Of a DNA stretch of 64,000 nt, positions 23,932-64,000 are shown piece by piece. The DNA lies in the NCBI RefSeq assembly GCF_056746865.1, contig NZ_CM163382.1; one strand, given 5' to 3'. The notes beneath the pieces are model-generated. The model ran no database searches. It worked only from the letters and a program-made list of their open reading frames with translations, and was not told the origin of the DNA. The position numbers and the translations under genes are program-made. The stretch's first letter is position 1; each line of letters opens with the position of its first letter.

Positions 23932-25949
23932 TGGATGCCCTGCAATTATTAACCTGGTCGCTGATCCTCTATCTGTTTGCCAGTCTGGCTTCGCTGTTTT
24001 TACTCGGTCTGGACAGACTGGCTATTAAGCTTTCCGGCATCACATCGCTGGTGGGTGGCGTGATTGGCATCATCAGCGGAATTACGCAATTACATGCAGG
24101 CGTAATTTTAGTCGCCCGTTTTGCCACGCCTTTTGACTTTGCCGATTTAACCCTGCGAATGGATAGCCTCTCGGCATTTATGGTGCTGGTTATCTCCTTG
24201 CTGGTGGTGGTTTGTTCGCTCTATTCATTGACTTATATGCGCGAATACGAGGGCAAAGGCGCGGCGGCGATGGGCTTCTTTATGAATCTTTTCATCGCAT
24301 CGATGGTTGCCCTGCTGGTGATGGACAACGCTTTTTGGTTCATCGTGCTGTTTGAAATGATGTCGCTGTCTTCCTGGTTTCTGGTCATTGCCAGGCAGGA
24401 TAAAACGTCAATCAACGCTGGCATGCTCTACTTTTTTATCGCCCACGCCGGATCGGTACTGATTATGATCGCCTTCTTGCTGATGGGGCGCGAAAGCGGC
24501 AGCCTCGATTTTGCCAGTTTCCGCACGCTTTCACTTTCTCCGGGGCTGGCGTCGGCGGTGTTCCTGCTGGCCTTCTTTGGTTTTGGCGCGAAAGCCGGGA
24601 TGATGCCGTTGCACAGCTGGTTGCCACGCGCTCACCCTGCCGCACCATCGCACGCTTCGGCGTTGATGTCTGGCGTAATGGTCAAAATCGGTATTTTCGG
24701 CATCCTGAAAGTAGCGATGGACCTGCTGGCGCAAACGGGTTTGCCGCTGTGGTGGGGCATTCTGGTGATGGCGATCGGCGCAATCTCCGCGCTCCTGGGC
24801 GTGCTGTATGCGCTGGCGGAACAGGATATCAAACGGCTGCTGGCCTGGAGTACCGTCGAAAACGTCGGCATTATTTTGCTGGCGGTCGGTGTGGCGATGG
24901 TCGGTCTGTCACTGCACGACCCGCTGCTCACCGTTGTTGGACTGCTCGGCGCGCTGTTTCATCTGCTCAACCATGCGCTGTTCAAAGGGCTGCTGTTTCT
25001 CGGCGCGGGTGCGATTATTTCGCGTTTGCATACCCACGACATGGAAAAAATGGGGGCACTGGCGAAACGTATGCCGTGGACAGCCGCAGCATGCCTGATT
25101 GGTTGCCTCGCGATATCTGCTATTCCTCCGCTGAATGGTTTTATCAGCGAATGGTACACCTGGCAGTCGCTGTTCTCACTAAGTCGTGTGGAAGCCGTAG
25201 CGCTACAACTTGCGGGTCCTATTGCTATGGTGATGCTGGCAGTCACTGGTGGGCTGGCAGTAATGTGCTTCGTCAAAATGTACGGTATTACTTTCTGTGG
25301 AGCGCCGCGCAGTACACACGCTGAAGAGGCACAGGAAGTGCCGAATACGATGATCGTCGCCATGCTACTGCTCGCGGCACTCTGCGTATTCATTGCGCTT
25401 AGTGCCAGTTGGCTGGCACCGAAGATAATGCACATTGCCCATGCGTTTACCAATACCCCTCCCGTCACTGTCGCCAGCGGAATAGCACTTGTACCAGGCA
25501 CGTTTCATACACGGGTCACTCCCTCATTACTGTTGCTGTTACTACTGGCGATGCCTTTGCTGCCTGGCCTTTACTGGCTGTGGTGTCGTTCGCGCCGCGC
25601 AGCGTTTCGTCGCACAGGAGATGCCTGGGCATGCGGCTACGGCTGGGAAAATGCGATGGCCCCGTCAGGCAATGGCGTGATGCAGCCGCTGCGTGTGGTC
25701 TTTTGTGCGCTATTTCGTCTACGACAACAGCTCGACCCTACGCTGAGGCTAAATAAAGGTCTTGCGCACGTCACCGCCAGGGCTCAGAGCACAGAACCCT
25801 TCTGGGATGAGCGGGTGATCCGCCCCATCGTGAGCGCCACCCAACGGCTGGCCAAAGAAGTACAGCATCTGCAAAGCGGCGACTTTCGTCTCTATTGCCT
25901 GTATGTGGTCGCCGCACTGGTTGTGCTGCTAATCGCTATTGCCGTCTAA
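23931..25949 (+). CDS. hyfB: hydrogenase-4 component B (NuoL/antiporter-like membrane subunit)
   Basis: 672-aa polytopic membrane ORF; start overlaps the hyfA stop. Confidence 0.9.
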   Translation: MDALQLLTWSLILYLFASLASLFLLGLDRLAIKLSGITSLVGGVIGIISGITQLHAGVILVARFATPFDFADLTLRMDSLSAFMVLVISLLVVVCSLYSLTYMREYEGKGAAAMGFFMNLFIASMVALLVMDNAFWFIVLFEMMSLSSWFLVIARQDKTSINAGMLYFFIAHAGSVLIMIAFLLMGRESGSLDFASFRTLSLSPGLASAVFLLAFFGFGAKAGMMPLHSWLPRAHPAAPSHASALMSGVMVKIGIFGILKVAMDLLAQTGLPLWWGILVMAIGAISALLGVLYALAEQDIKRLLAWSTVENVGIILLAVGVAMVGLSLHDPLLTVVGLLGALFHLLNHALFKGLLFLGAGAIISRLHTHDMEKMGALAKRMPWTAAACLIGCLAISAIPPLNGFISEWYTWQSLFSLSRVEAVALQLAGPIAMVMLAVTGGLAVMCFVKMYGITFCGAPRSTHAEEAQEVPNTMIVAMLLLAALCVFIALSASWLAPKIMHIAHAFTNTPPVTVASGIALVPGTFHTRVTPSLLLLLLLAMPLLPGLYWLWCRSRRAAFRRTGDAWACGYGWENAMAPSGNGVMQPLRVVFCALFRLRQQLDPTLRLNKGLAHVTARAQSTEPFWDERVIRPIVSATQRLAKEVQHLQSGDFRLYCLYVVAALVVLLIAIAV

Positions 25950-25959
25950 GGAAATCACC

Positions 25960-26907
25960 ATGAGACAAACTCTTTGCGACGGATATCTGGTCATTTTTGC
26001 GTTAGCACAGGCCGTGATTCTGCTGGTGCTAACCCCGCTTTTTACGGGGATTTCCCGGCAGATACGCGCGCGTATGCACTCCCGTCGCGGACCGGGGATC
26101 TGGCAGGATTATCGCGATATCCACAAACTGTTTAAACGCCAGGAAGTTGCGCCGACATCTTCAGGTCTGATGTTCCGCCTGATGCCGTGGGTATTAATCA
26201 GCAGCATGCTGGTGCTGGCGATGGCCCTACCACTATTTATTACTGTTTCCCCTTTTGCGGGCGGCGGCGATCTGATCACCCTTATCTATCTTCTTGCCCT
26301 GTTTCGTTTTTTCTTTGCTCTTTCCGGGCTGGATACCGGAAGCCCCTTTGCGGGAGTCGGTGCCAGTCGCGAGTTGACGCTCGGCATTCTGGTCGAACCC
26401 ATGCTCATTCTCTCACTGCTGGTATTGGCGCTGATAGCGGATTCCACGCATATCGAGATGATCAGCAATACGCTGGCGACGGGCTGGAACTCGCCGCTAA
26501 CCACCGTACTGGCGTTACTGGCCTGTGGTTTTGCCTGCTTCATTGAGATGGGAAAAATTCCCTTTGATGTTGCTGAAGCAGAACAGGAATTACAGGAAGG
26601 CCCGCTGACCGAATATTCCGGTGCCGGGCTGGCGCTGGCGAAATGGGGGCTGGGGCTGAAACAGGTCGTGATGGCATCACTGTTTGTGGCCCTGTTTCTG
26701 CCCTTTGGGCGCGCGCAAGAGCTTTCTCTCACCTGCCTGCTGACTTCACTTGTCGTTACGCTGCTCAAGGTTTTGCTGATTTTTGTACTGGCCTCAATCG
26801 CAGAAAACACGCTGGCACGCGGGCGTTTTTTACTCATTCACCATGTGACCTGGCTTGGCTTCAGCCTTGCTGCGCTTGCCTGGGTCTTCTGGTTAACCGG
26901 TCTGTAA
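25960..26907 (+). CDS. hyfC: hydrogenase-4 component C (NuoH-like membrane subunit)
   Basis: ORF 25939-26907; start placed at ATG 25960 (MRQTLCDGYLVIFALAQ...), 315 aa. Confidence 0.9.
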   Translation: MRQTLCDGYLVIFALAQAVILLVLTPLFTGISRQIRARMHSRRGPGIWQDYRDIHKLFKRQEVAPTSSGLMFRLMPWVLISSMLVLAMALPLFITVSPFAGGGDLITLIYLLALFRFFFALSGLDTGSPFAGVGASRELTLGILVEPMLILSLLVLALIADSTHIEMISNTLATGWNSPLTTVLALLACGFACFIEMGKIPFDVAEAEQELQEGPLTEYSGAGLALAKWGLGLKQVVMASLFVALFLPFGRAQELSLTCLLTSLVVTLLKVLLIFVLASIAENTLARGRFLLIHHVTWLGFSLAALAWVFWLTGL

Positions 26908-52453: not shown

Positions 52454-52993
52454 ATGAAGAAAGTTTTTCTTTGCGCCATCTTAGCCTCCTTAAGCTATCC
52501 GGCTATCGCCTCATCATTGCAGGATCAACTCTCTGCTGTCGCAGAAGCGGAACAGCAAGGTAAAAATGAAGAGCAAAGGCAGCATGACGAATGGATCGCG
52601 GAGCGCAACAGGGAAATCCAGCAAGAGAAGCAACGTCGCGCAAACGCCCAGGCCGCCGCTAACAAAAGAGCGGCAACGGCAGCGGCAAATAAGAAAGCTC
52701 GTCAGGATAAACTGGATGCCGAAGCCACTGCGGACAAAAAACGCGATCAAAGTTATGAAGATGAGCTACGCAGCTTAGAGATTCAGAAACAAAAACTGGC
52801 GCTGGCGAAAGAAGAAGCCCGCGTTAAGCGCGAAAACGAATTTATCGATCAGGAACTGAAGCACAAAGCTGCGCAAACCGATGTGGTGCAATCTGAAGCT
52901 GACGCAAACAGGAATATGACTGAGGGCGGTCGCGATCTGATGAAAAGCGTGGGCAAAGCAGAAGAGAACAAATCGGACAGCTGGTTTAACTAA
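52454..52993 (+). CDS. yfgI: periplasmic coiled-coil protein YfgI
   Basis: 179-aa ORF with signal peptide and highly charged coiled-coil body; length matches YfgI. Confidence 0.9.
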   Translation: MKKVFLCAILASLSYPAIASSLQDQLSAVAEAEQQGKNEEQRQHDEWIAERNREIQQEKQRRANAQAAANKRAATAAANKKARQDKLDAEATADKKRDQSYEDELRSLEIQKQKLALAKEEARVKRENEFIDQELKHKAAQTDVVQSEADANRNMTEGGRDLMKSVGKAEENKSDSWFN

Positions 52994-53073: not shown

Positions 53074-53164
53074 TAGACTGGCCCCCTGAATCTCCAGACA
53101 ACCAATATCACTTAAATAAGTGATAGTCTTAATACTAGTTTTTAGACTAGTCATTGGAGAGCAG

Positions 53165-53530
53165 ATGATTGATGTCTTAGGACCGGAGAAACGCAGACGG
53201 CGTACTACACAGGAAAAGATCGCTATTGTTCAGCAGAGTTTTGAACCGGGAATGACGGTCTCCCTTGTTGCCCGGCAACACGGTGTGGCAGCCAGCCAGT
53301 TATTTCTCTGGCGCAAGCAATACCAGGAGGGAAGTCTTACTGCTGTGGCCGCAGGAGAGCAGGTCGTTCCTGCCTCTGAACTTGCTGCTGCCATGAAGCA
53401 GATTAAAGAACTCCAGCGCCTGCTCGGCAAAAAAACGATGGAAAATGAACTCCTTAAAGAAGCCGTTGAATACGGGCGTGCAAAAAAGTGGATAGCGCAC
53501 GCGCCCTTATTGCCCGGGGATGGGGAGTAA
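53165..53530 (+). CDS. insC: IS2 transposase OrfA (InsC; HTH DNA-binding component)
   Basis: ORF 53120-53530; start placed at ATG 53165 ([24 protein letters not shown]...), 121 aa. Confidence 0.9.
53482..53488 (+). other. IS2 programmed -1 ribosomal frameshift slippery site (A6G) in the insC/insD overlap
   Basis: AAAAAAG heptamer inside the 43-nt overlap of insC and insD; IS3-family OrfAB fusions are made by -1 frameshifting at such sites. Confidence 0.6.
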
Positions 53531-54393
53531 GCTTAGTCAGCCGTTGTCTCCGGGTGTCGCGTGCGCAGTTGCACGTCATTCTCAGACGAACCGATGACTG
53601 GAAAGATGGTCGCCGCAGCCGTCACTCAGATGATACGGATGTGCTTCTCCGTATACACCATGTTATCGGAGAGCTGCCCACGTATGGTTATCGTCGGGTA
53701 TGGGCGCTGCTTCGCAGACAGGCCGAACTTGATGGTATGCCTGCGATCAATGCCAAACGTGTTTACCGGATCATGCGCCAGAATGCGCTGTTGCTTGAGC
53801 GAAAAACCGCTGTACCGCCATCGAAACGGGCACATACTGGCAAAGTGGCCGTGAAAGAAAGCAATCAACGATGGTGCTCTGACGGGTTCGAGTTCCGCTG
53901 TGATAACGGAGAAAAACTGCGAGTCACGTTCGCGCTGGACTGCTGTGACCGTGAGGCACTGCACTGGGCAGTCACTACGGGCGGCTTCGACAGTGAAACA
54001 GTACAGGACGTAATGCTGGGAGCGGTGGAACGCCGCTTCGGCAACGAGCTTCCGGCGTCTCCAGTAGAGTGGCTGACGGATAATGGTTCATGCTACCGGG
54101 CTAATGAAACACGGCAGTTTGCCCGGATGTTGGGGCTTGAACCGAAGAACACGGCGGTGCGGAGTCCGGAGAGTAACGGCATAGCAGAGAGCTTCGTGAA
54201 AACGATAAAGCGTGACTACATCAGTATCATGCCTAAACCAGACGGGTTAACGGCAGCAAAGAACCTTGCAGAGGCGTTCGAGCATTATAACGAATGGCAT
54301 CCGCATAGTGCACTGGGTTATCGCTCGCCACGGGAATATCTACGGCAGCGGGCCAGTAATGGGTTAAGTGATAACAGGTGTCTGGAAATATAG
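53488..54393 (+). CDS. insD: IS2 transposase OrfB (InsD; DDE integrase-like catalytic component)
   Basis: 301-aa ORF ([23 protein letters not shown]...); rve-type integrase core. Confidence 0.9.
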
Positions 54394-54476: not shown

Positions 54477-54935
54477 TTACTTACGGCCCGTAAACGGGCT
54501 GCCCGGATAGGGAATCGATAACTGCTCTCCCATTTTATCCTCTTCAAGCTGGTGCTTTATGTAATCCTGTATCTTCGCCGTGTTCTTACCCACTGTATCG
54601 ACGTAGTACCCTCTGCACCAGAACTCCCTGTTCCTGTATTTGAATTTCAAATCACCAAACTGCTCGTAAAGCATCAGACTGCTTTTCCCTTTCAGATATC
54701 CCATAAACCCGGATACGCTCATTTTAGGCGGGATCTCCACAAGCATATGGATATGATCTGCACAGCATTCAGCTTCCAGAATCCGTACGCTTTTCCACTC
54801 ACACAGCTTTCTCAAAATACTGCCTATTGCTCTACGCTTCTCTCTGTAGAACACCTGTCTTCGGTATTTTGGCGCAAAAACTATGTGATATTTACAGTTC
54901 CATCGGGTGTGCGCTAAGCTCTTTTCGTTCCCCAT
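54477..54935 (-). CDS. tnpA: IS200 transposase TnpA (Y1/HuH single-strand transposase)
   Basis: ORF 54477-54986; start placed at ATG 54935 preceded by GGGGG (MGNEKSLAHTRWNCKYHIVFAPKYRRQVFY...), 152 aa; HuH motif (HIHMLV) and catalytic Tyr region. Confidence 0.9.
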   Translation of the reverse strand: MGNEKSLAHTRWNCKYHIVFAPKYRRQVFYREKRRAIGSILRKLCEWKSVRILEAECCADHIHMLVEIPPKMSVSGFMGYLKGKSSLMLYEQFGDLKFKYRNREFWCRGYYVDTVGKNTAKIQDYIKHQLEEDKMGEQLSIPYPGSPFTGRK

Positions 54936-54940
54936 TGGGA

Positions 54941-55010
54941 CCCCCTTTTGATTTCTTGTTTGACACTTGCAGTTGCCAGACCGCAAGGTGTTTTAACAAA
55001 TCAAAAGGGG
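54941..55010 (-). promoter_or_regulatory. IS200 5'-UTR stem-loop that sequesters the tnpA ribosome-binding site
   Basis: CCCCTTTTGATTT (54941-54953) and AAATCAAAAGGGG (54998-55010) are exact reverse complements; the arm next to the ATG contains the Shine-Dalgarno sequence. Confidence 0.6.
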
Positions 55011-59956: not shown

Positions 59957-60229
59957 ATGGAGAAGATTAAGATGCAGCAGTATCACTATCCACTGGAAGA
60001 CGGATTTACCGAAAGGATTCACACGCCGGGAGGCGTCAGGTCACTGGTGGAGGGATCGCACTTGATGAAATTACTCCGGGATCTCGATAAGGATGGATTT
60101 AATGTCGATGGCCCACTTGCCGAACTGACTGCACTGATTAACTACGTCACCAGCTCACAGATGTCTATGCGGGATCTGCAAACACATCTCGACTATTGTG
60201 CCGAACAATTACGAAAACAAACCCGGTAA
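59957..60229 (+). CDS. small SOS-box-associated prophage protein of unknown function (90 aa, or 85 aa from ATG 59972 which has the better GGAGA Shine-Dalgarno)
   Basis: ORF in track; soluble, charged, no TM segment; LexA box overlaps its promoter region; convergent with the 98-aa membrane protein gene. Confidence 0.55.
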   Translation: MEKIKMQQYHYPLEDGFTERIHTPGGVRSLVEGSHLMKLLRDLDKDGFNVDGPLAELTALINYVTSSQMSMRDLQTHLDYCAEQLRKQTR

Positions 60230-60235
60230 ATTTAA

Positions 60236-60273
60236 AGGCCGCAAGAGCGGCCTGTGACATGTCACGCTCTTTT
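60236..60273. terminator. bidirectional terminator between the convergent small genes
   Basis: GGCCGC-aaga-GCGGCC hairpin then GTGACATGTCAC palindrome and CTCTTTTTC; T-rich on both strands (tttaaattt on the minus side). Confidence 0.55.
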
Positions 60274-60558
60274 TCTGAATGATAGCCATTCGAAAAATGA
60301 TGACATTCCACCGCAGACAATAGCAAAGATGATCCCACCAAAGAAGAGAAGGCCAGCCTGCCACCACTCCCACCGCCATACATCCACAGCGCCAACCATA
60401 CCAACAATCGCTCCAACAAATGGAATATAGCTCACGATGAAAGCAATGGGGGCTGCAATTATCCAGTGCAATCCCCACCATGATTCAAGCCCAGCCATAA
60501 TTGCTGCCAACTGAAAAAGACCAACGACGATATAAACAATGAATCCTATAGCTTGCAT
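60262..60558 (-). CDS. small 3-TM inner-membrane protein of unknown function (moron; candidate superinfection-exclusion or conversion protein)
   Basis: 98-aa ORF with AGGTGA Shine-Dalgarno; three hydrophobic helices, Trp-rich loop (VDVWRWEWWQAG), basic C-terminus FRKRA. Confidence 0.6.
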   Translation of the reverse strand: MQAIGFIVYIVVGLFQLAAIMAGLESWWGLHWIIAAPIAFIVSYIPFVGAIVGMVGAVDVWRWEWWQAGLLFFGGIIFAIVCGGMSSFFEWLSFRKRA

Positions 60559-60753: not shown

Positions 60754-63228
60754 TTATTGCGGAGTGACATCCTGAGGTCGCCACCAGTATGTCTGGTTAA
60801 ACTCTTTCTTCGAACGTTGCTCCATTTTACGCAAATAGCCTGGTGAAAAATACTCCTGCATCTGGTTAAAGATCATATGATCGAGAGCCGCCTTTAAGTA
60901 CCAGAGATTCGCACCTGGCATCAAACCTTTCCCCAGCTTCACCAGATCACCACCAGTCTGCTCACTCTTCCCTTCCACAGCATTTAACGGTATGCCCTGA
61001 GCAATCTTCACTACGTCATCAACCAGACCAGCTACCGGGCCAAGCATCGACGCCAGCGCGCCGCTTCCGTACCTAGTGTGATCTGACAATAAAAAGTCAC
61101 CGTAAAGGCCAAGACCACCACCTTTCAGTAGAGCACCAAGCCAAAATTTAGCAGCATCTTCTCCTGTCATCTCGCGAGGATTACGACCAGACGCAAGGTC
61201 GTTAAGTTGCTGCGACAAAGCGCCAAGAATGGTCGTACTGGCAATAAACGTCGCAATATATGCCGCACGCCCACCAGCAGACGGCATACCCATAGCGCGT
61301 GACCAGTGACGCATAACCACCGAGATAGGGAACGATTTAAACAGGAAAACACTTCTCGTTAATTCACCTTTCCATGTTCCACGCTGAATACCAGAACCGG
61401 TTATCAGTTGCTCACGTGCTCCCGGTGTAATAACAGCCATATCAACTTCTTCAGTTACGGCACCGAGCAGTTTACGCATTGCCTCAAATTTCACGCGTTC
61501 AGGCTCACCAAGATGTTTAACTGCTGAATCAGGGATACGCATAATGCTTTCCGGTGTCAGCATCGTATTATTGCCGTTCCCCCAGTCCTCCTGTTGCGCC
61601 AGCTTCCATACGCTCCAGTCTGTGTCAGTAATCCCTTTGCTTTTCAGGATACGAAAATCAGAATCATCGAGGCTACGAAGGTCTGGTGTCCGTGACACTA
61701 CTTCTCCCAGGCTTCCCATCATGGTTACGCCATAGGCGCGCTTGTGCGCATCTGACCATGCTGTAAGCCCACTGGCACGCATTACCGCCGTTGCAGCCCA
61801 ACGAGACACAGACGGCCCCATATTATCCATCGCCCAGCGGTTAACGCTGCCAAGTAGAGATTCCATCGCCAGACCAGCGCGGCGCGCCCGCGCAAGTTCT
61901 GTACGGTTCGTTGGGTCCATAGCTTCAAGCTGGTTGCGGAATAACTGGTTCATTGGAAGGTTGGTAACCTTCGCAGACAGATACATGGTTCCAAGATCAG
62001 AGAACGATGACAGCAACGCGGATCCGAGTCTGCTGGCAACCAGCCAGTTGCGGATATTGTCAGACCATCGCGCGATGTGCGGATTCGCTACAGGCTGTGT
62101 CTTTCCGGAAATAAAATTGTACAGATTCTCTGTGTTGTTCGCCAGCCGCTCGACTTTACCGGTTTTACTCGGGTTAGCTGTTGCCGTTTCTGCCTTCACC
62201 TGATCAAGAAGAGAGCGGAAAACATGATCGGGGTTTGGGCCATATGTTTCCACCAGTGCAATATCTTTACTGATACCTTCAAGGTGACCGACCATGATTT
62301 CCCATAGAGAGCGATCGCCATAAAGTTGCTGATATTGCAGATAGGAATCTGCATCTTTGAAATGTATCTGTCGTGATGCATTACCACGGTTAGCACGTGC
62401 GCCGGAAATTCGCATTCCGGTATCAGTAAGCTTATTCAGCCCACCAGTAGCGATCGTGTTATAAGCCTCTCCAAGAAATGCAGACAACTCGGCATCGTTC
62501 ATCAGTTGTCCATCGGCTCGGGTATAATATTTGCGATCCAGCTTACCTATAACATCGCTAACCCATTTATCTTTTGATACCGCCCCAACCTTTTCCATAG
62601 AATGATGTTGAGGGATCCCCCAGTTTTCGAGATAGCCAATGTCCCCACCAGCATCATTAAACCGGCGGCGCAGCAGCTCTGTAACTTCTCTCCACGCCTT
62701 AGCACCTTTTCTTGCTTTAGCATTGCCAGTATTTTGCCCCCGCATTTCATATACCAGGTCACGTACGCCCGCTTCATCTTCAAACAGACCAAAAAAGCGA
62801 GGATCAACTGCTTCGAATGCCTCCTGCAATTGACTCAATGCATAATCACGGGTGGCTTTTGTTCTGGATTCAACAGAGAGGAAATTCGATTTACCGTCTG
62901 CATTAAAAGCAATAGTACGGTTAAGAGCGCCAAGTTTCCCATCAGCCCCTTGATAGCTATTGATAAATTTATCCAATCTCTGACGTGCGGCTATAGTGAG
63001 GGCCACACGACGTTTCTTTAATGCCGCTTCTCGCTGTAATTCTTCAGATGCCAATTGTGCTGCACGATACAACCGTTCTGATTCGGAAAGTTGTCGCCAC
63101 GACATCGGGTCATCACGAGCAATGGAGCGCATATTTCGATAAATGCGGTCTTCAATGTTCTGTATTTCTCGCGCCGTTAACGTGCGCTGCGCCGCCTGCT
63201 GGACCGCTTGTATACATTCCTGTCTCAT
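60754..63228 (-). CDS. large prophage virion protein, function unknown (putative internal virion / DNA-ejection protein by position)
   Basis: 824-aa ORF; N-terminal coiled-coil, Gly-rich C-terminal region; directly upstream of the tail fiber module; no catalytic motif recognised. Confidence 0.6.
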   Translation of the reverse strand: MRQECIQAVQQAAQRTLTAREIQNIEDRIYRNMRSIARDDPMSWRQLSESERLYRAAQLASEELQREAALKKRRVALTIAARQRLDKFINSYQGADGKLGALNRTIAFNADGKSNFLSVESRTKATRDYALSQLQEAFEAVDPRFFGLFEDEAGVRDLVYEMRGQNTGNAKARKGAKAWREVTELLRRRFNDAGGDIGYLENWGIPQHHSMEKVGAVSKDKWVSDVIGKLDRKYYTRADGQLMNDAELSAFLGEAYNTIATGGLNKLTDTGMRISGARANRGNASRQIHFKDADSYLQYQQLYGDRSLWEIMVGHLEGISKDIALVETYGPNPDHVFRSLLDQVKAETATANPSKTGKVERLANNTENLYNFISGKTQPVANPHIARWSDNIRNWLVASRLGSALLSSFSDLGTMYLSAKVTNLPMNQLFRNQLEAMDPTNRTELARARRAGLAMESLLGSVNRWAMDNMGPSVSRWAATAVMRASGLTAWSDAHKRAYGVTMMGSLGEVVSRTPDLRSLDDSDFRILKSKGITDTDWSVWKLAQQEDWGNGNNTMLTPESIMRIPDSAVKHLGEPERVKFEAMRKLLGAVTEEVDMAVITPGAREQLITGSGIQRGTWKGELTRSVFLFKSFPISVVMRHWSRAMGMPSAGGRAAYIATFIASTTILGALSQQLNDLASGRNPREMTGEDAAKFWLGALLKGGGLGLYGDFLLSDHTRYGSGALASMLGPVAGLVDDVVKIAQGIPLNAVEGKSEQTGGDLVKLGKGLMPGANLWYLKAALDHMIFNQMQEYFSPGYLRKMEQRSKKEFNQTYWWRPQDVTPQ

Positions 63229-63233
63229 TTAAT

Positions 63234-64000
63234 TTAACCTCTCAAGAAACACGCCACAGCAACATCAAACAGGCTGGAATCCTGTATTGCCTGCTCACTT
63301 TCCCTGTTCGCTTCATCCAGTACTTCACGCGCACTGCGCGATTGTGGATTACCATCATCATCCAGCACGGTGATTATCATGTCAGGTGATTCAAGCAGCG
63401 AGTCTTCAGCTATGCGCAGATCAATATCTCCTGCCTGATCTGACATCATTTTTTGTTCTGCCTGTTGCAATATTTTATCAGGCTCAAAAGGAGCTACTTC
63501 GTCTGGCGTCCTGACCTCTGCTGTTTTATAGAATGAAACAGCCTGAGCATTAAGTTCACTTTCTGCCTGCTGTCTCCGAGCCAGTTCTGCTCGAGCTTCA
63601 AAAAACTGACCGCCAGGCTCGTGCGGTGCCAACGCGTTACGGGAAAATTCCAGGCGTTCTTGTGCCTGCCGGATTCGTTGATCAATATCGCGAAGTCTGG
63701 CCTGTTTATCTGATCGAGCACGAGACAAAGCTTTACCGCTACCGGTTGGCTCTTCTGCAAGAATTTGTGCACGCTGTTCAGTGAGATTTTCAATAATTCG
63801 TTGGCTATTAGCGATTTCAGACTGGTAAACCTGTCTATCTCCACGCGGCAAAAGCTGCGCGGCCTGTTCTTCAAGCAACCGATTTTCTATAGCGCGCGCC
63901 GTTACTCCATCATCTACAGATGACAGAGCCTCATTAACTGCCTGAGACAGCAGACTCTTGCGCCCAGGAATTTCACTGAAAGATGCAGACTCAACAATGC
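63234..64000 (-). CDS. prophage coiled-coil virion/ejection-associated protein, C-terminal part (5' end beyond window)
   Basis: ORF track gives 63234-63878, but the same frame stays open to the window end (...SEIPGRKSLLSQAVNEALSSVDDGVTARAIENRLLEEQAAQ...); Gln/Glu/Arg-rich coiled-coil. Confidence 0.55.
   Translation of the reverse strand, partial: IVESASFSEIPGRKSLLSQAVNEALSSVDDGVTARAIENRLLEEQAAQLLPRGDRQVYQSEIANSQRIIENLTEQRAQILAEEPTGSGKALSRARSDKQARLRDIDQRIRQAQERLEFSRNALAPHEPGGQFFEARAELARRQQAESELNAQAVSFYKTAEVRTPDEVAPFEPDKILQQAEQKMMSDQAGDIDLRIAEDSLLESPDMIITVLDDDGNPQSRSAREVLDEANRESEQAIQDSSLFDVAVACFLRG

Follow-up and report, generated by a model that had tools for sequence, protein, structure and literature searches.

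Two adjacent genes of a phiV10/epsilon15-like prophage as a probable counterpart of T7 gp16

The podophages T7 and PhiM1 carry a core of internal proteins above the portal, which is ejected into the cell envelope ahead of the DNA (PMC11784390, PMC11440229). A tube spanning the periplasm has been seen during epsilon15 infection (PMC5850374, PMC8402733), and one review assigns the epsilon15 internal core to gp17 (PMC5850374). According to a 2021 paper, no sequence relationship can be recognised among the proteins that build the channel in P22, T7 and epsilon15 (PMC8402733).

The window, a 64,000-nucleotide stretch of contig NZ_CM163382.1 (GCF_056746865.1), ends in a gene for an 824-aa protein and the partial ORF upstream of it. 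The earlier note on this DNA had placed both in the position of internal virion or DNA-ejection proteins, without a recognised family. By analogy with T7, the two ORFs are probably the genes for the last two proteins of the internal core, the ejection proteins, of a phiV10/epsilon15-like temperate podophage; their products would jointly be the counterpart of T7 gp16 and be ejected to form the DNA-entry channel (probability about 0.8).

The prophage and its two core genes

The prophage is a phiV10/epsilon15-like (Uetakevirus) prophage of E. coli with a T7-like tail and core module and is not P22-like. It is inserted between yfgI and guaA and has a DNA identity of 94-97% to Uetakevirus phages. 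For the window, this settles the prophage lineage, which is that of a temperate, serotype-specific podophage of E. coli. Next to the prophage end, at 53.1-55.0 kb, there are a copy of IS2 and a transposase gene of the IS200 family; both are situated outside the phage genes. The 824-aa gene and the tailspike are separated by less DNA than in phiV10 and phiv142-3, and neither of the two ORFs searched there has a BRO-N match.

The 824-codon ORF is intact and ATG-initiated in the ORF listing of the window, and its length is far beyond a chance origin. The protein (Table 1) matches PHROG 684, described as "virion structural protein", over its full length (E=0, 1286 bits, residues 1-824 against profile positions 1-831 of 840). 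A non-virion reading was considered and rejected. The proteins of HEMP4, ZX5 and O157 typing phage 10 are 99.3-99.8% identical to it, and the homolog at the gene 17 position in the epsilon15-type Salmonella phage VB_ST_E15 is about 28% identical. The protein is the ortholog of phiV10 gp20 (YP_512274) and epsilon15 gp17. The 824-aa protein and its partner have thousands of homologs, with matches to phage families from E=0 to 1e-109. A search for related loci with a tight alignment returned only loci that were 87-100% identical, too close to add any diversity. A distant homolog in phiVC8 was named structural by BLAST only and is absent from the proteins identified by mass spectrometry.

The 824-aa protein has no match in Pfam (E<=0.1) or NCBIfam (E<=1), and sequence searches of the PDB with single sequences and profiles of both protein families gave nothing significant. 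The AF2 model is all-alpha, with a pLDDT of 91.1 and a pTM of 0.91. A conserved FLFKSFP motif precedes three Gly-rich hydrophobic helices, and conservation within the family is highest in this helix region. The helices are candidate membrane-inserting segments.

Table 1. Coordinates of the core protein genes and their features in the window
Feature	Position	Strand	Basis
Complete gene, 824-aa internal core/ejection protein (predicted)	60754..63228	-	ATG-start ORF; PHROG 684
Three Gly-rich hydrophobic helices of the 824-aa protein (aa 651-675, 696-715, 721-746)	60991..61278	-	Kyte-Doolittle hydropathy
Gene junction, partner to 824-aa gene	63214..63251	-	Sequence reading
3' part (last 254 codons and stop) of the 600-aa partner core protein gene	63234..64000	-	Open frame; PHROG 1145
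Long helical pair (aa 398-469) of the partner protein	63630..63845	-	AF2 model

The frame upstream is open to the window edge; translation of 63234..63998 gives 254 codons without an internal stop, followed by TAA at 63236-63234. Its product matches PHROG 1145 (1e-109, profile positions 375-594 of 594) and shares 98% identity with the phiV10 gp19 C-terminus. The partial ORF is the C-terminal part of a 600-aa homolog of phiV10 gp19 (YP_512273) and epsilon15 gp16. The homolog search for the partner family returned near-identical sequences only and yielded no deep alignment, with the result that the AF2 model of the 600-aa protein is poor (pLDDT 57); only the helical pair is confident (pLDDT 84-96). 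Since this pair lies inside the window, the earlier description of the partial protein as coiled-coil is reasonable.

The Pfam scan of the window part of the partner has no match. For the full-length partner, NCBIfam has none and Pfam gives chance-level matches only (E 0.065-0.15, far under the cut-offs). Neither the 824-aa protein nor the full 600-aa partner has an SLT (lytic transglycosylase) domain in Pfam or NCBIfam, and similarity of the partner family to T7 gp15 and gp16 is undetectable by hhalign. Both ORFs exist as the earlier note had described them, and its reading that they lack a catalytic motif agrees with these scans. The families can be recognised, since PHROG 684 (full-length) and PHROG 1145 cover them, phiV10 gp20 and gp19 are their counterparts, and PMC5850374 identifies epsilon15 gp17, the ortholog of the 824-aa protein, as the core protein of that phage. 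The finding is real but ordinary, in that both genes are near-identical to genes of sequenced phages and the family is already known. About 6% of complete E. coli genomes carry the two core genes, and the PGAP label is still "hypothetical protein".

Gene order and fold of the core module

Gene order was read from phiV10, phiv142-3 and the E. coli 118UI prophage. The module encodes a tubular A-like protein of 201 aa, a tubular B-like protein of 823 aa, proteins of 154, 181, 837, 600 and 824 aa, and then the tailspike, and this order mirrors T7 gp11, 12, 13, 14, 15, 16 and 17. In these three Uetakevirus sequences the 824-aa gene comes last among the large structural genes, following the gp15-like and gp16-like genes and preceding the tailspike region. 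The gene-by-gene order is shared with BcepC6B, Acinetobacter phage 4316, Pelagibacter phage Skadi-4 and Vibrio phiVC8. The 181-aa neighbour passes the Pfam T7_gp14 model with 31.2 bits against a cut-off of 27 and is named "virion core protein, T7 gp14 family" by PGAP. PHROGs labels the two small proteins of the module "internal virion protein". The homologs of tubular proteins A and B just upstream belong to PHROG 394/9239 ("tail tubular protein") and PHROG 376 ("tail protein"), and the "tail tube A/B" proteins of Skadi-4 match them at 2e-24 and 2e-123.

At positions 11-13, the phiV10 and epsilon15-type modules have genes for about 201, 823-825 and 154 aa. Table 1 of the review PMC8954989 lists 229 aa (gp11), 499 aa (gp12) and 708 aa (gp13) for Epsilon 15, and was set aside because these sizes disagree with the module and look P22-like. 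The portal is a separate gene, annotated as "portal protein" in E. coli 118UI; the phiV10 counterpart (PhiV10p07) is annotated as "head-tail adaptor". A tape-measure or portal reading was rejected, since there is no family match, the related prophages have this separate portal gene, and the phage, a podovirus, has no tail-tube or tape-measure genes. Of the outcomes that the earlier note had listed as speaking against a core protein (tape measure, portal, non-virion protein), none was found for the 824-aa protein in PHROG, Pfam or NCBIfam.

The fold of the 824-aa model is similar to the body of gp16, as seen in T7 gp16, PhiM1 gp48 and "internal virion protein D" proteins. The best PDB match by Foldseek is 9jyy_I (probability 0.94, E 0.01), and the runner-up has a probability of 0.13. 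The matched chain has 1223 residues and comes from the T7 core; because of this length it must be gp16. In BFVD the model matches T7-like "internal virion protein D" and "internal core protein" entries (E 5e-9 to 1e-4) over more than 800 aligned columns, with a TM of approximately 0.34-0.5 by query length. Many predicted viral structures score about 1e-8. Several of the BFVD matches are "large polyvalent protein associated domain-containing" proteins.

Direct evidence from sequence that the 824-aa protein is homologous to T7 gp16 is weak and near the detection limit. There are two local profile matches, which are collinear and share an offset close to +478: positions 281-432 of the profile correspond to gp16 759-913 and positions 615-672 to 1092-1150, the profile numbers being close to residue numbers. 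The HMM score against T7 gp16 is 12.8 bits (hmmsearch), which was reached by none of 2000 locally shuffled gp16 sequences. In hhalign the probability is 10.7% (E 0.003). This comparison is weak and has a single sequence on the T7 side because the homolog search for T7 gp16 gave only 94-99% identical sequences and no deep profile. T7 gp16 has three hydrophobic segments near its C-terminus (1132-1158, 1188-1213 and 1251-1271), as does the 824-aa protein by Kyte-Doolittle hydropathy.

The placement of both proteins at an internal or ejection position of a virion module is borne out by the synteny, the T7_gp14 match, the gp16-type fold matches and the effector-bearing fusions described below. The ejection role that the earlier note had suggested holds; the lineage is not P22-like, and the module is T7-like.

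Split pairs, fused relatives and the gene junction

The phiV10 gp20/gp19 and epsilon15 gp17/gp16 proteins are the orthologs of the pair, with the same 824-aa length and the same position, and the window holds the same protein in a prophage. More distant phages also have a split pair in the same order: BcepC6B (gp16 and gp17), Acinetobacter phage 4316 (858 aa and 836 aa), Pelagibacter phage Skadi-4 (gp11 and gp12) and Vibrio phages VP2, VP5 and phiVC8 (p18 and p19). The 824-aa protein matches its counterparts in the split-pair phages at 5e-109 down to 2e-59. The partner matches only those of BcepC6B and Acinetobacter 4316 among these phages, at 2e-9 and 2e-4. In these two phages the protein at the partner position is annotated with an SLT/transglycosylase domain, which the E. 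coli version lacks. Some of the split-pair proteins are already annotated as "internal virion protein".

Other relatives are fused into a single chain of 1700-2900 aa, in which the N-terminal module of the 600-aa partner comes first and the full 824-aa module comes last. The middle of these proteins contains ddrB-ParB, RadC-JAB or ART-PolyVal domains. Such cargo domains are hallmarks of proteins co-injected with DNA, as described for polyvalent proteins by Iyer et al. 2017 (PMC5512222). Phage polyvalent proteins have at least two disparate effector or enzymatic domains per chain, and the fused relatives carry ParB, JAB or ART cargo. In contrast, the window proteins have no cargo domain in Pfam or NCBIfam and resemble a bare scaffold.

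The partner gene ends 5 nt before the start of the 824-aa gene, and a GAGAGG Shine-Dalgarno-like motif sits inside the end of the partner gene. On the minus strand, the junction comprises the Cys596 codon (63249-63251) and stop codon (63234-63236) of the upstream protein, followed by the start codon (63226-63228) and Cys5 codon (63214-63216) of the 824-aa protein. Among the relatives, this cysteine pair, located 5-11 residues before the upstream C-terminus and at position 5 of the 824-aa protein, is conserved in the split versions and lost from the fused versions, which carry Leu, Met, Thr or Ala in place of both cysteines. It is conceivable, if rather unlikely, that podophages of the epsilon15, BcepC6B, VP2 and Pelagibacter type re-join the split halves of a gp16-like protein through the cysteine pair, which would make either a disulfide or a metal site common to both halves. 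Such a junction would act as a covalent hinge that may arise in the virion or under the oxidising conditions of the periplasm, and the same scaffold would be a general podophage vehicle for injected anti-defence effectors.

Role in ejection and comparison with T7

By analogy with T7 and PhiM1, both proteins would be packaged with the gp14-like and gp15-like proteins as a core above the portal inside the capsid. The 600-aa partner would substitute for the N-terminal part of gp16, here without a lytic transglycosylase domain. Binding of the tailspikes to O-antigen would be the trigger, after which the core proteins may unfold and exit via the tail nozzle before the DNA. [quoted passage not shown] The elements that insert into the membrane are likely to be the Gly-rich hydrophobic helices, which lie at the C-terminus of the 824-aa protein and in the N-terminal half of its partner.

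An external tail position of both proteins is an unlikely alternative to this core, one in which the 824-aa and gp15-like proteins make up the tube or hub at the centre of the adsorption apparatus, a proposal made for epsilon15 from amber-mutant particles. Attachment of epsilon15 gp17 reportedly needed gp15 and gp16. The RefSeq product name of phiV10 gp20 says no more than "virion structural protein", and the passage of PMC12391199 on Guichard et al. 2013 describes epsilon15 gp4, gp20, gp15 and gp17/16 as the tail packaging/injection apparatus and not as an internal core. However, the hub would come from the homologs of T7 tubular proteins A and B that are already encoded just upstream, and the fold matches are internal core proteins and not nozzle or adaptor proteins. 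Epsilon15 particles that lack gp15 and gp17, but are DNA-filled and bear tailspikes, are reportedly stable. This stability would fit the loss of a core better than the loss of a tail tube.

It is also very unlikely that the proteins are injected carriers or effectors that act on the host (counter-defence) and do not form a channel, with the 800-residue module as a polyvalent delivery scaffold. The fused relatives, the polyvalent-associated BFVD matches and the concept in PMC5512222 point in this direction, but the window versions have no effector domains in Pfam or NCBIfam. Thousands of podophage genomes have the module in the same fixed place, whether cargo is present or absent, and its best matches among solved structures are of the channel-forming gp16 class. 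Cargo is also compatible with a channel role, as T7 gp16 itself bears an enzyme. Equally little weight is given to both genes being inert remnants of a defective prophage, with no functional product in this strain. The IS elements at the prophage end, the shortened stretch next to the tailspike and the presence of only part of the prophage in the window would fit such decay. Yet neither ORF is disrupted, and their identity to the counterparts in plaque-forming phages and many other lysogens is 98-99.9%. The ORF listing likewise shows no interruption of the lysis, tailspike and core genes within the window, and the IS elements are outside the phage genes.

The preferred reading is that of internal core proteins, and the P22 E-proteins gp7, gp20 and gp16 have the same general role, as internal proteins that become a trans-periplasmic conduit (PMC8402733). 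P22 has no ordered core (PMC5850374), whereas the window module is T7-like, and no homology to the P22 E-proteins was seen incidentally.

T7 gp16 and PhiM1 gp48 occupy the same slot as the 824-aa protein in a collinear tail and core module. Together with their Autographiviridae relatives, they are the best and longest structural matches of its model. The 824-aa protein corresponds roughly to the C-terminal 800 or so residues of a T7-type gp16. T7 gp16 is encoded by one gene (1318 aa), whereas in the window prophage it is split in two (600 and 824 aa). The N-terminal lytic transglycosylase of T7 gp16 is missing from both halves, and similarity between the gp16 N-terminus and the 600-aa partner is undetectable. 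Fold and synteny tie the epsilon15-type proteins to the T7 gp14/gp16 system. This makes annotation transfer to thousands of uncharacterised podophage proteins possible, as an incremental step and not as a new biological principle.

Family identity and prophage setting

The 824-aa protein and its partner, the 600-aa protein whose gene is cut by the right edge of the window, are a real feature and belong to a phage protein family that is both known and very common. The two reading frames reported in the earlier note are borne out; the 824-codon ORF is intact and the upstream frame stays open to the window edge. Both have homologs by the thousands in homolog searches and are far longer than expected by chance. 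A gap of 5 nt separates the genes, and the 3' end of the partner gene contains a GAGAGG ribosome-binding motif. That note had placed the proteins in no recognised family, which was wrong: PHROG 684 ('virion structural protein') covers the 824-aa protein from end to end (E=0), the final 220 profile positions of PHROG 1145 align to the partial protein (1e-109), and phage orthologs exist.

The 824-aa protein is the ortholog of phiV10 gp20, named 'virion structural protein' in RefSeq. Its identity is 99.3-99.8% to proteins of HEMP4, ZX5, PAS61 and O157 typing phage 10, 94% to counterparts in Salmonella phages SPN1S and SPN9TCW, and about 28%, across 99% of the protein, to the gene-17-position homolog of VB_ST_E15, an epsilon15-type Salmonella phage. 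The partial ORF shares 98% identity with the C-terminus of phiV10 gp19, a 600-aa protein annotated as similar to epsilon15 gp16. The 824-aa family has 5140 representatives at 50% clustering, with members in Vibrio VP2/VP5/phiVC8, Pelagibacter podophages, Liberibacter SC1/SC2, BcepC6B, and Ralstonia, Acinetobacter and Pseudomonas phages; some already carry the annotation 'internal virion protein'. Of 5426 complete E. coli genomes, 323 carry the gene, and PGAP annotates it as 'hypothetical protein' in the records listed. Pfam and NCBIfam gave no match for the 824-aa protein or the in-window part of the partner, in agreement with the earlier remark that no catalytic motif is visible. The full-length partner has only chance-level Pfam matches, far under the cut-offs, and PDB sequence searches, profiles included, found no entry related to either protein.

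Features of the prophage region and its left flank
Feature	Position	Strand	Remark
yfgI	52454-52993		
IS2 copy	53120-54393	+	two overlapping transposase ORFs
IS200-family tnpA	54477-54986	-	
Rz-side prophage end	about 55.1-55.2 kb		
Rz-like spanin, family-19 glycoside hydrolase endolysin, holin, membrane protein	55.2-57.1 kb	-	
Tailspike, 800 aa	57373-59775	-	followed by small membrane protein, 824-aa and partial genes
90-aa ORF	59957-60229	+	between tailspike and core genes
Small membrane protein gene, 98-aa ORF	60262-60558	-	directly downstream of 824-aa gene
824-codon ORF	60754-63228	-	ATG start; ORF listing
Cys5 codon, 824-aa protein	63214-63216	-	
Partial upstream (partner) ORF	63234-63998	-	open 254 codons, TAA at 63236-63234, runs past window edge; translation
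Cysteine codon, partner	63249-63251	-	

The right-hand 9 kb of the window has 94-97% DNA identity to the phiV10-like coliphages HEMP4, phiv142-3, PAS61, phiV10 and O157 typing phages 9 and 10, and about 79-80% to Salmonella and Enterobacter relatives; all annotated DNA matches are to the genus Uetakevirus. The rest of the prophage, which the earlier note proposed to look for, can be read from the complete genome of E. coli 118UI, which has the same insertion. The entire 39-kb prophage lies there between yfgI and guaA, with portal, terminase and integrase beyond the stretch corresponding to the window.

Several neighbouring features differ from relatives. The tailspike is a mosaic, with an N-terminal phiV10/epsilon15-type particle-binding domain (~227 aa), a low-GC middle (0.42) unrelated to that of phiV10 and a C-terminal Peptidase_S74 intramolecular chaperone domain (aa 662-723). 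The O-acetyltransferase gene oac, which adjoins the phiV10 tailspike gene, is missing from the window. The variable region that holds a BRO-N gene in phiV10 and phiv142-3 is much shorter, and no BRO-N match was found among the ORFs checked in this shortened interval between the tailspike and core genes. The 90-aa ORF belongs to PHROG 450 (unknown function) and weakly matches the C-terminus of an anti-repressor family. The 98-aa ORF has many hydrophobic segments, belongs to PHROG 3075 (unknown function) and gives a weak holin-family hint; its phiV10 counterpart by position is PhiV10p21, a shorter 'putative integral membrane protein'. Both insertion sequences sit between yfgI and the prophage, an interval that holds only the IS200 copy in related genomes.

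Gene order, fold and sequence signals relative to T7

The phiV10 module encodes proteins of 201, 823, 154, 181, 837, 600 and 824 aa and then the tailspike. This order parallels that of T7, gp11 (196), gp12 (794), gp13 (138), gp14 (196), gp15 (747), gp16 (1318) and the gp17 fibre. PHROGs labels the 201- and 823-aa proteins as tail or tail-tubular and the 154- and 181-aa proteins as internal virion proteins. The 181-aa protein is above the Pfam T7_gp14 cut-off (31.2 bits vs 27) and is a 'virion core protein, T7 gp14 family' in PGAP. BcepC6B, Acinetobacter phage 4316, Pelagibacter phage Skadi-4 and Vibrio phiVC8 have the same gene order as phiV10, and pairwise sequence matches back most positions. 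Among these four, the partner is matched pairwise only in BcepC6B (2e-9) and Acinetobacter 4316 (2e-4), where the protein at its position is annotated with an SLT or transglycosylase domain, like T7 gp16. The protein at the gp15 position, phiV10 gp18 (837 aa; 24049-26562 of the phiV10 locus, beyond the window), has segments common to PHROGs labelled endolysin, tail injection transglycosylase and tape measure protein; it has no SLT match in Pfam.

An AlphaFold2 model of the 824-aa protein, built with 100 diverse homologs as input, is confident (pLDDT 91.1, pTM 0.91) and all-helical. In a Foldseek search of the PDB the sole match of appreciable probability was 9jyy_I (prob 0.94, E 0.01; next prob 0.13), a 1223-residue chain of the 'core proteins of mature T7' entry (PMC11784390). 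This chain must be gp16 because of its length. In BFVD, a set of predicted viral structures, the matches form a graded series, all at probability 1.00. The series begins within the protein's own family, with the 'Internal virion protein' of VP2 (1e-33), passes through polyvalent-protein fragments and SLT-domain proteins, and ends with 'internal protein D' or 'internal core protein' of Autographiviridae, where the alignments exceed 800 columns and TM, by query length, is about 0.34-0.5. E values for this last group were 5e-9 (BB8), 5e-8 (RSB3), 4e-6 (PSTRCR_120), 3e-6 (LKA1), 7e-6 (PAO1_Ab05) and 1e-4 (another Pseudomonas phage).

Sequence signals to T7 gp16 are weak and collinear. Family profile positions 615-672 align to gp16 1092-1150 with a common FKSF motif, and hhalign pairs 281-432 with 759-913 at E 0.003 and a probability of just 10.7%; the offset is about +478 in both. 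In 2000 local shuffles of gp16, the observed score was never reached. Given this offset, the 824-aa protein would cover gp16 residues about 480-1300. Both proteins have three hydrophobic segments within roughly their last 190 residues.

Fused relatives and the junction cysteines

Among the matches listed, five relatives of 1700-2900 aa (P0140, P0142, P0148, P0194 and P0235) have the conserved N-terminal module of the partner first and a complete 824-aa module last. Between the modules P0148 has ddrB-like ParB and RadC-JAB domains, and P0194 has an ART-PolyVal ADP-ribosyltransferase. Such domains are a signature of the 'polyvalent proteins', for which co-injection with the DNA is inferred (PMC5512222). 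The gp16-like scaffold thus carries polyvalent, presumably injected, effectors in these relatives. The junction in P0194 is seamless, with the 824-like N-terminus beginning within two residues of the partner-like C-terminus. Since the modules occur as single chains with such a junction, the two window genes behave as halves of one functional unit. In another homolog group, about 1040-1170 aa long, a coiled-coil-like stretch of about 200-320 residues is inserted after residue ~575.

Of 100 aligned stand-alone homologs, 99 have the Cys5 of the 824-aa protein, as do 115 of ~120 stand-alone representatives. In each of the six divergent phages compared (phiV10, an epsilon15-type phage, BcepC6B, Acinetobacter 4316, Skadi-4 and phiVC8), a cysteine lies 5-11 residues before the C-terminus of the partner. 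The three fused proteins with an alignable junction (P0140, P0194, P0235) have Leu, Met, Thr or Ala in place of the junction cysteines. The pair may therefore form an inter-chain disulfide or metal bridge that ties the separate halves together, with few fused examples behind this comparison.

Proposed role and relation to known systems

Synteny, fold, weak collinear sequence signals and fusions are four independent lines that point to the T7 gp16 class of internal core/ejection proteins, and the earlier guess of ejection machinery was right. In T7 and PhiM1 a core of gp14, gp15 and gp16 is stacked on the portal; after adsorption these proteins exit via the nozzle and rebuild as a channel from outer membrane through periplasm to inner membrane (PMC11784390, PMC11440229, PMC8954989). 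A core of this kind is assigned to gp17 in epsilon15, and a tube across the periplasm has been observed during its infection (PMC5850374, PMC8402733). By homology with these phages, the 824-aa protein and its partner are probably the innermost components of a T7-type ejectosome. The Gly-rich hydrophobic helices at aa 651-746 (824-aa protein) and aa 123-279 (partner) would be the likely membrane-inserting parts. The in-window part of the partner comprises a pair of long helices (aa 398-469), predicted with confidence, and a conserved C-terminal tail.

An epsilon15 genetic study, as cited in PMC12391199, put gp15 and gp17/16 in the tail apparatus. It is unlikely that the window proteins belong there, since the genes just upstream code for bona fide homologs of the T7 tubular proteins and the structural matches are all to core proteins. 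A role as effectors only is very improbable because the window proteins have no cargo domains. There is equally little chance that the genes are an inert remnant, as both ORFs are intact and nearly identical to genes of plaque-forming phages.

Table 1 of PMC8954989 lists gp11 (229 aa), gp12 (499 aa) and gp13 (708 aa) as 'Epsilon 15' ejection proteins, unlike genes 11-13 of the epsilon15-type and phiV10 modules (about 201, 823-825 and 154 aa). The listed sizes have a P22-like look, so this entry is possibly mislabelled.

The finding is already known to the extent that the window genes are orthologs of known phage genes. Position, fold and hydrophobic architecture favour membership in the T7 gp16 family, sequence similarity is near the detection limit, and the transglycosylase domain of T7 gp16, which the window proteins lack, counts against it. 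In a 2021 paper these systems were said to show no recognisable relationship at the sequence level (PMC8402733). The somewhat new element is the explicit tie, at the level of the predicted fold, between the epsilon15-type gp17 family and the C-terminal body of T7 gp16, together with the view of the gp16-like and gp17-like proteins as a split T7 gp16.
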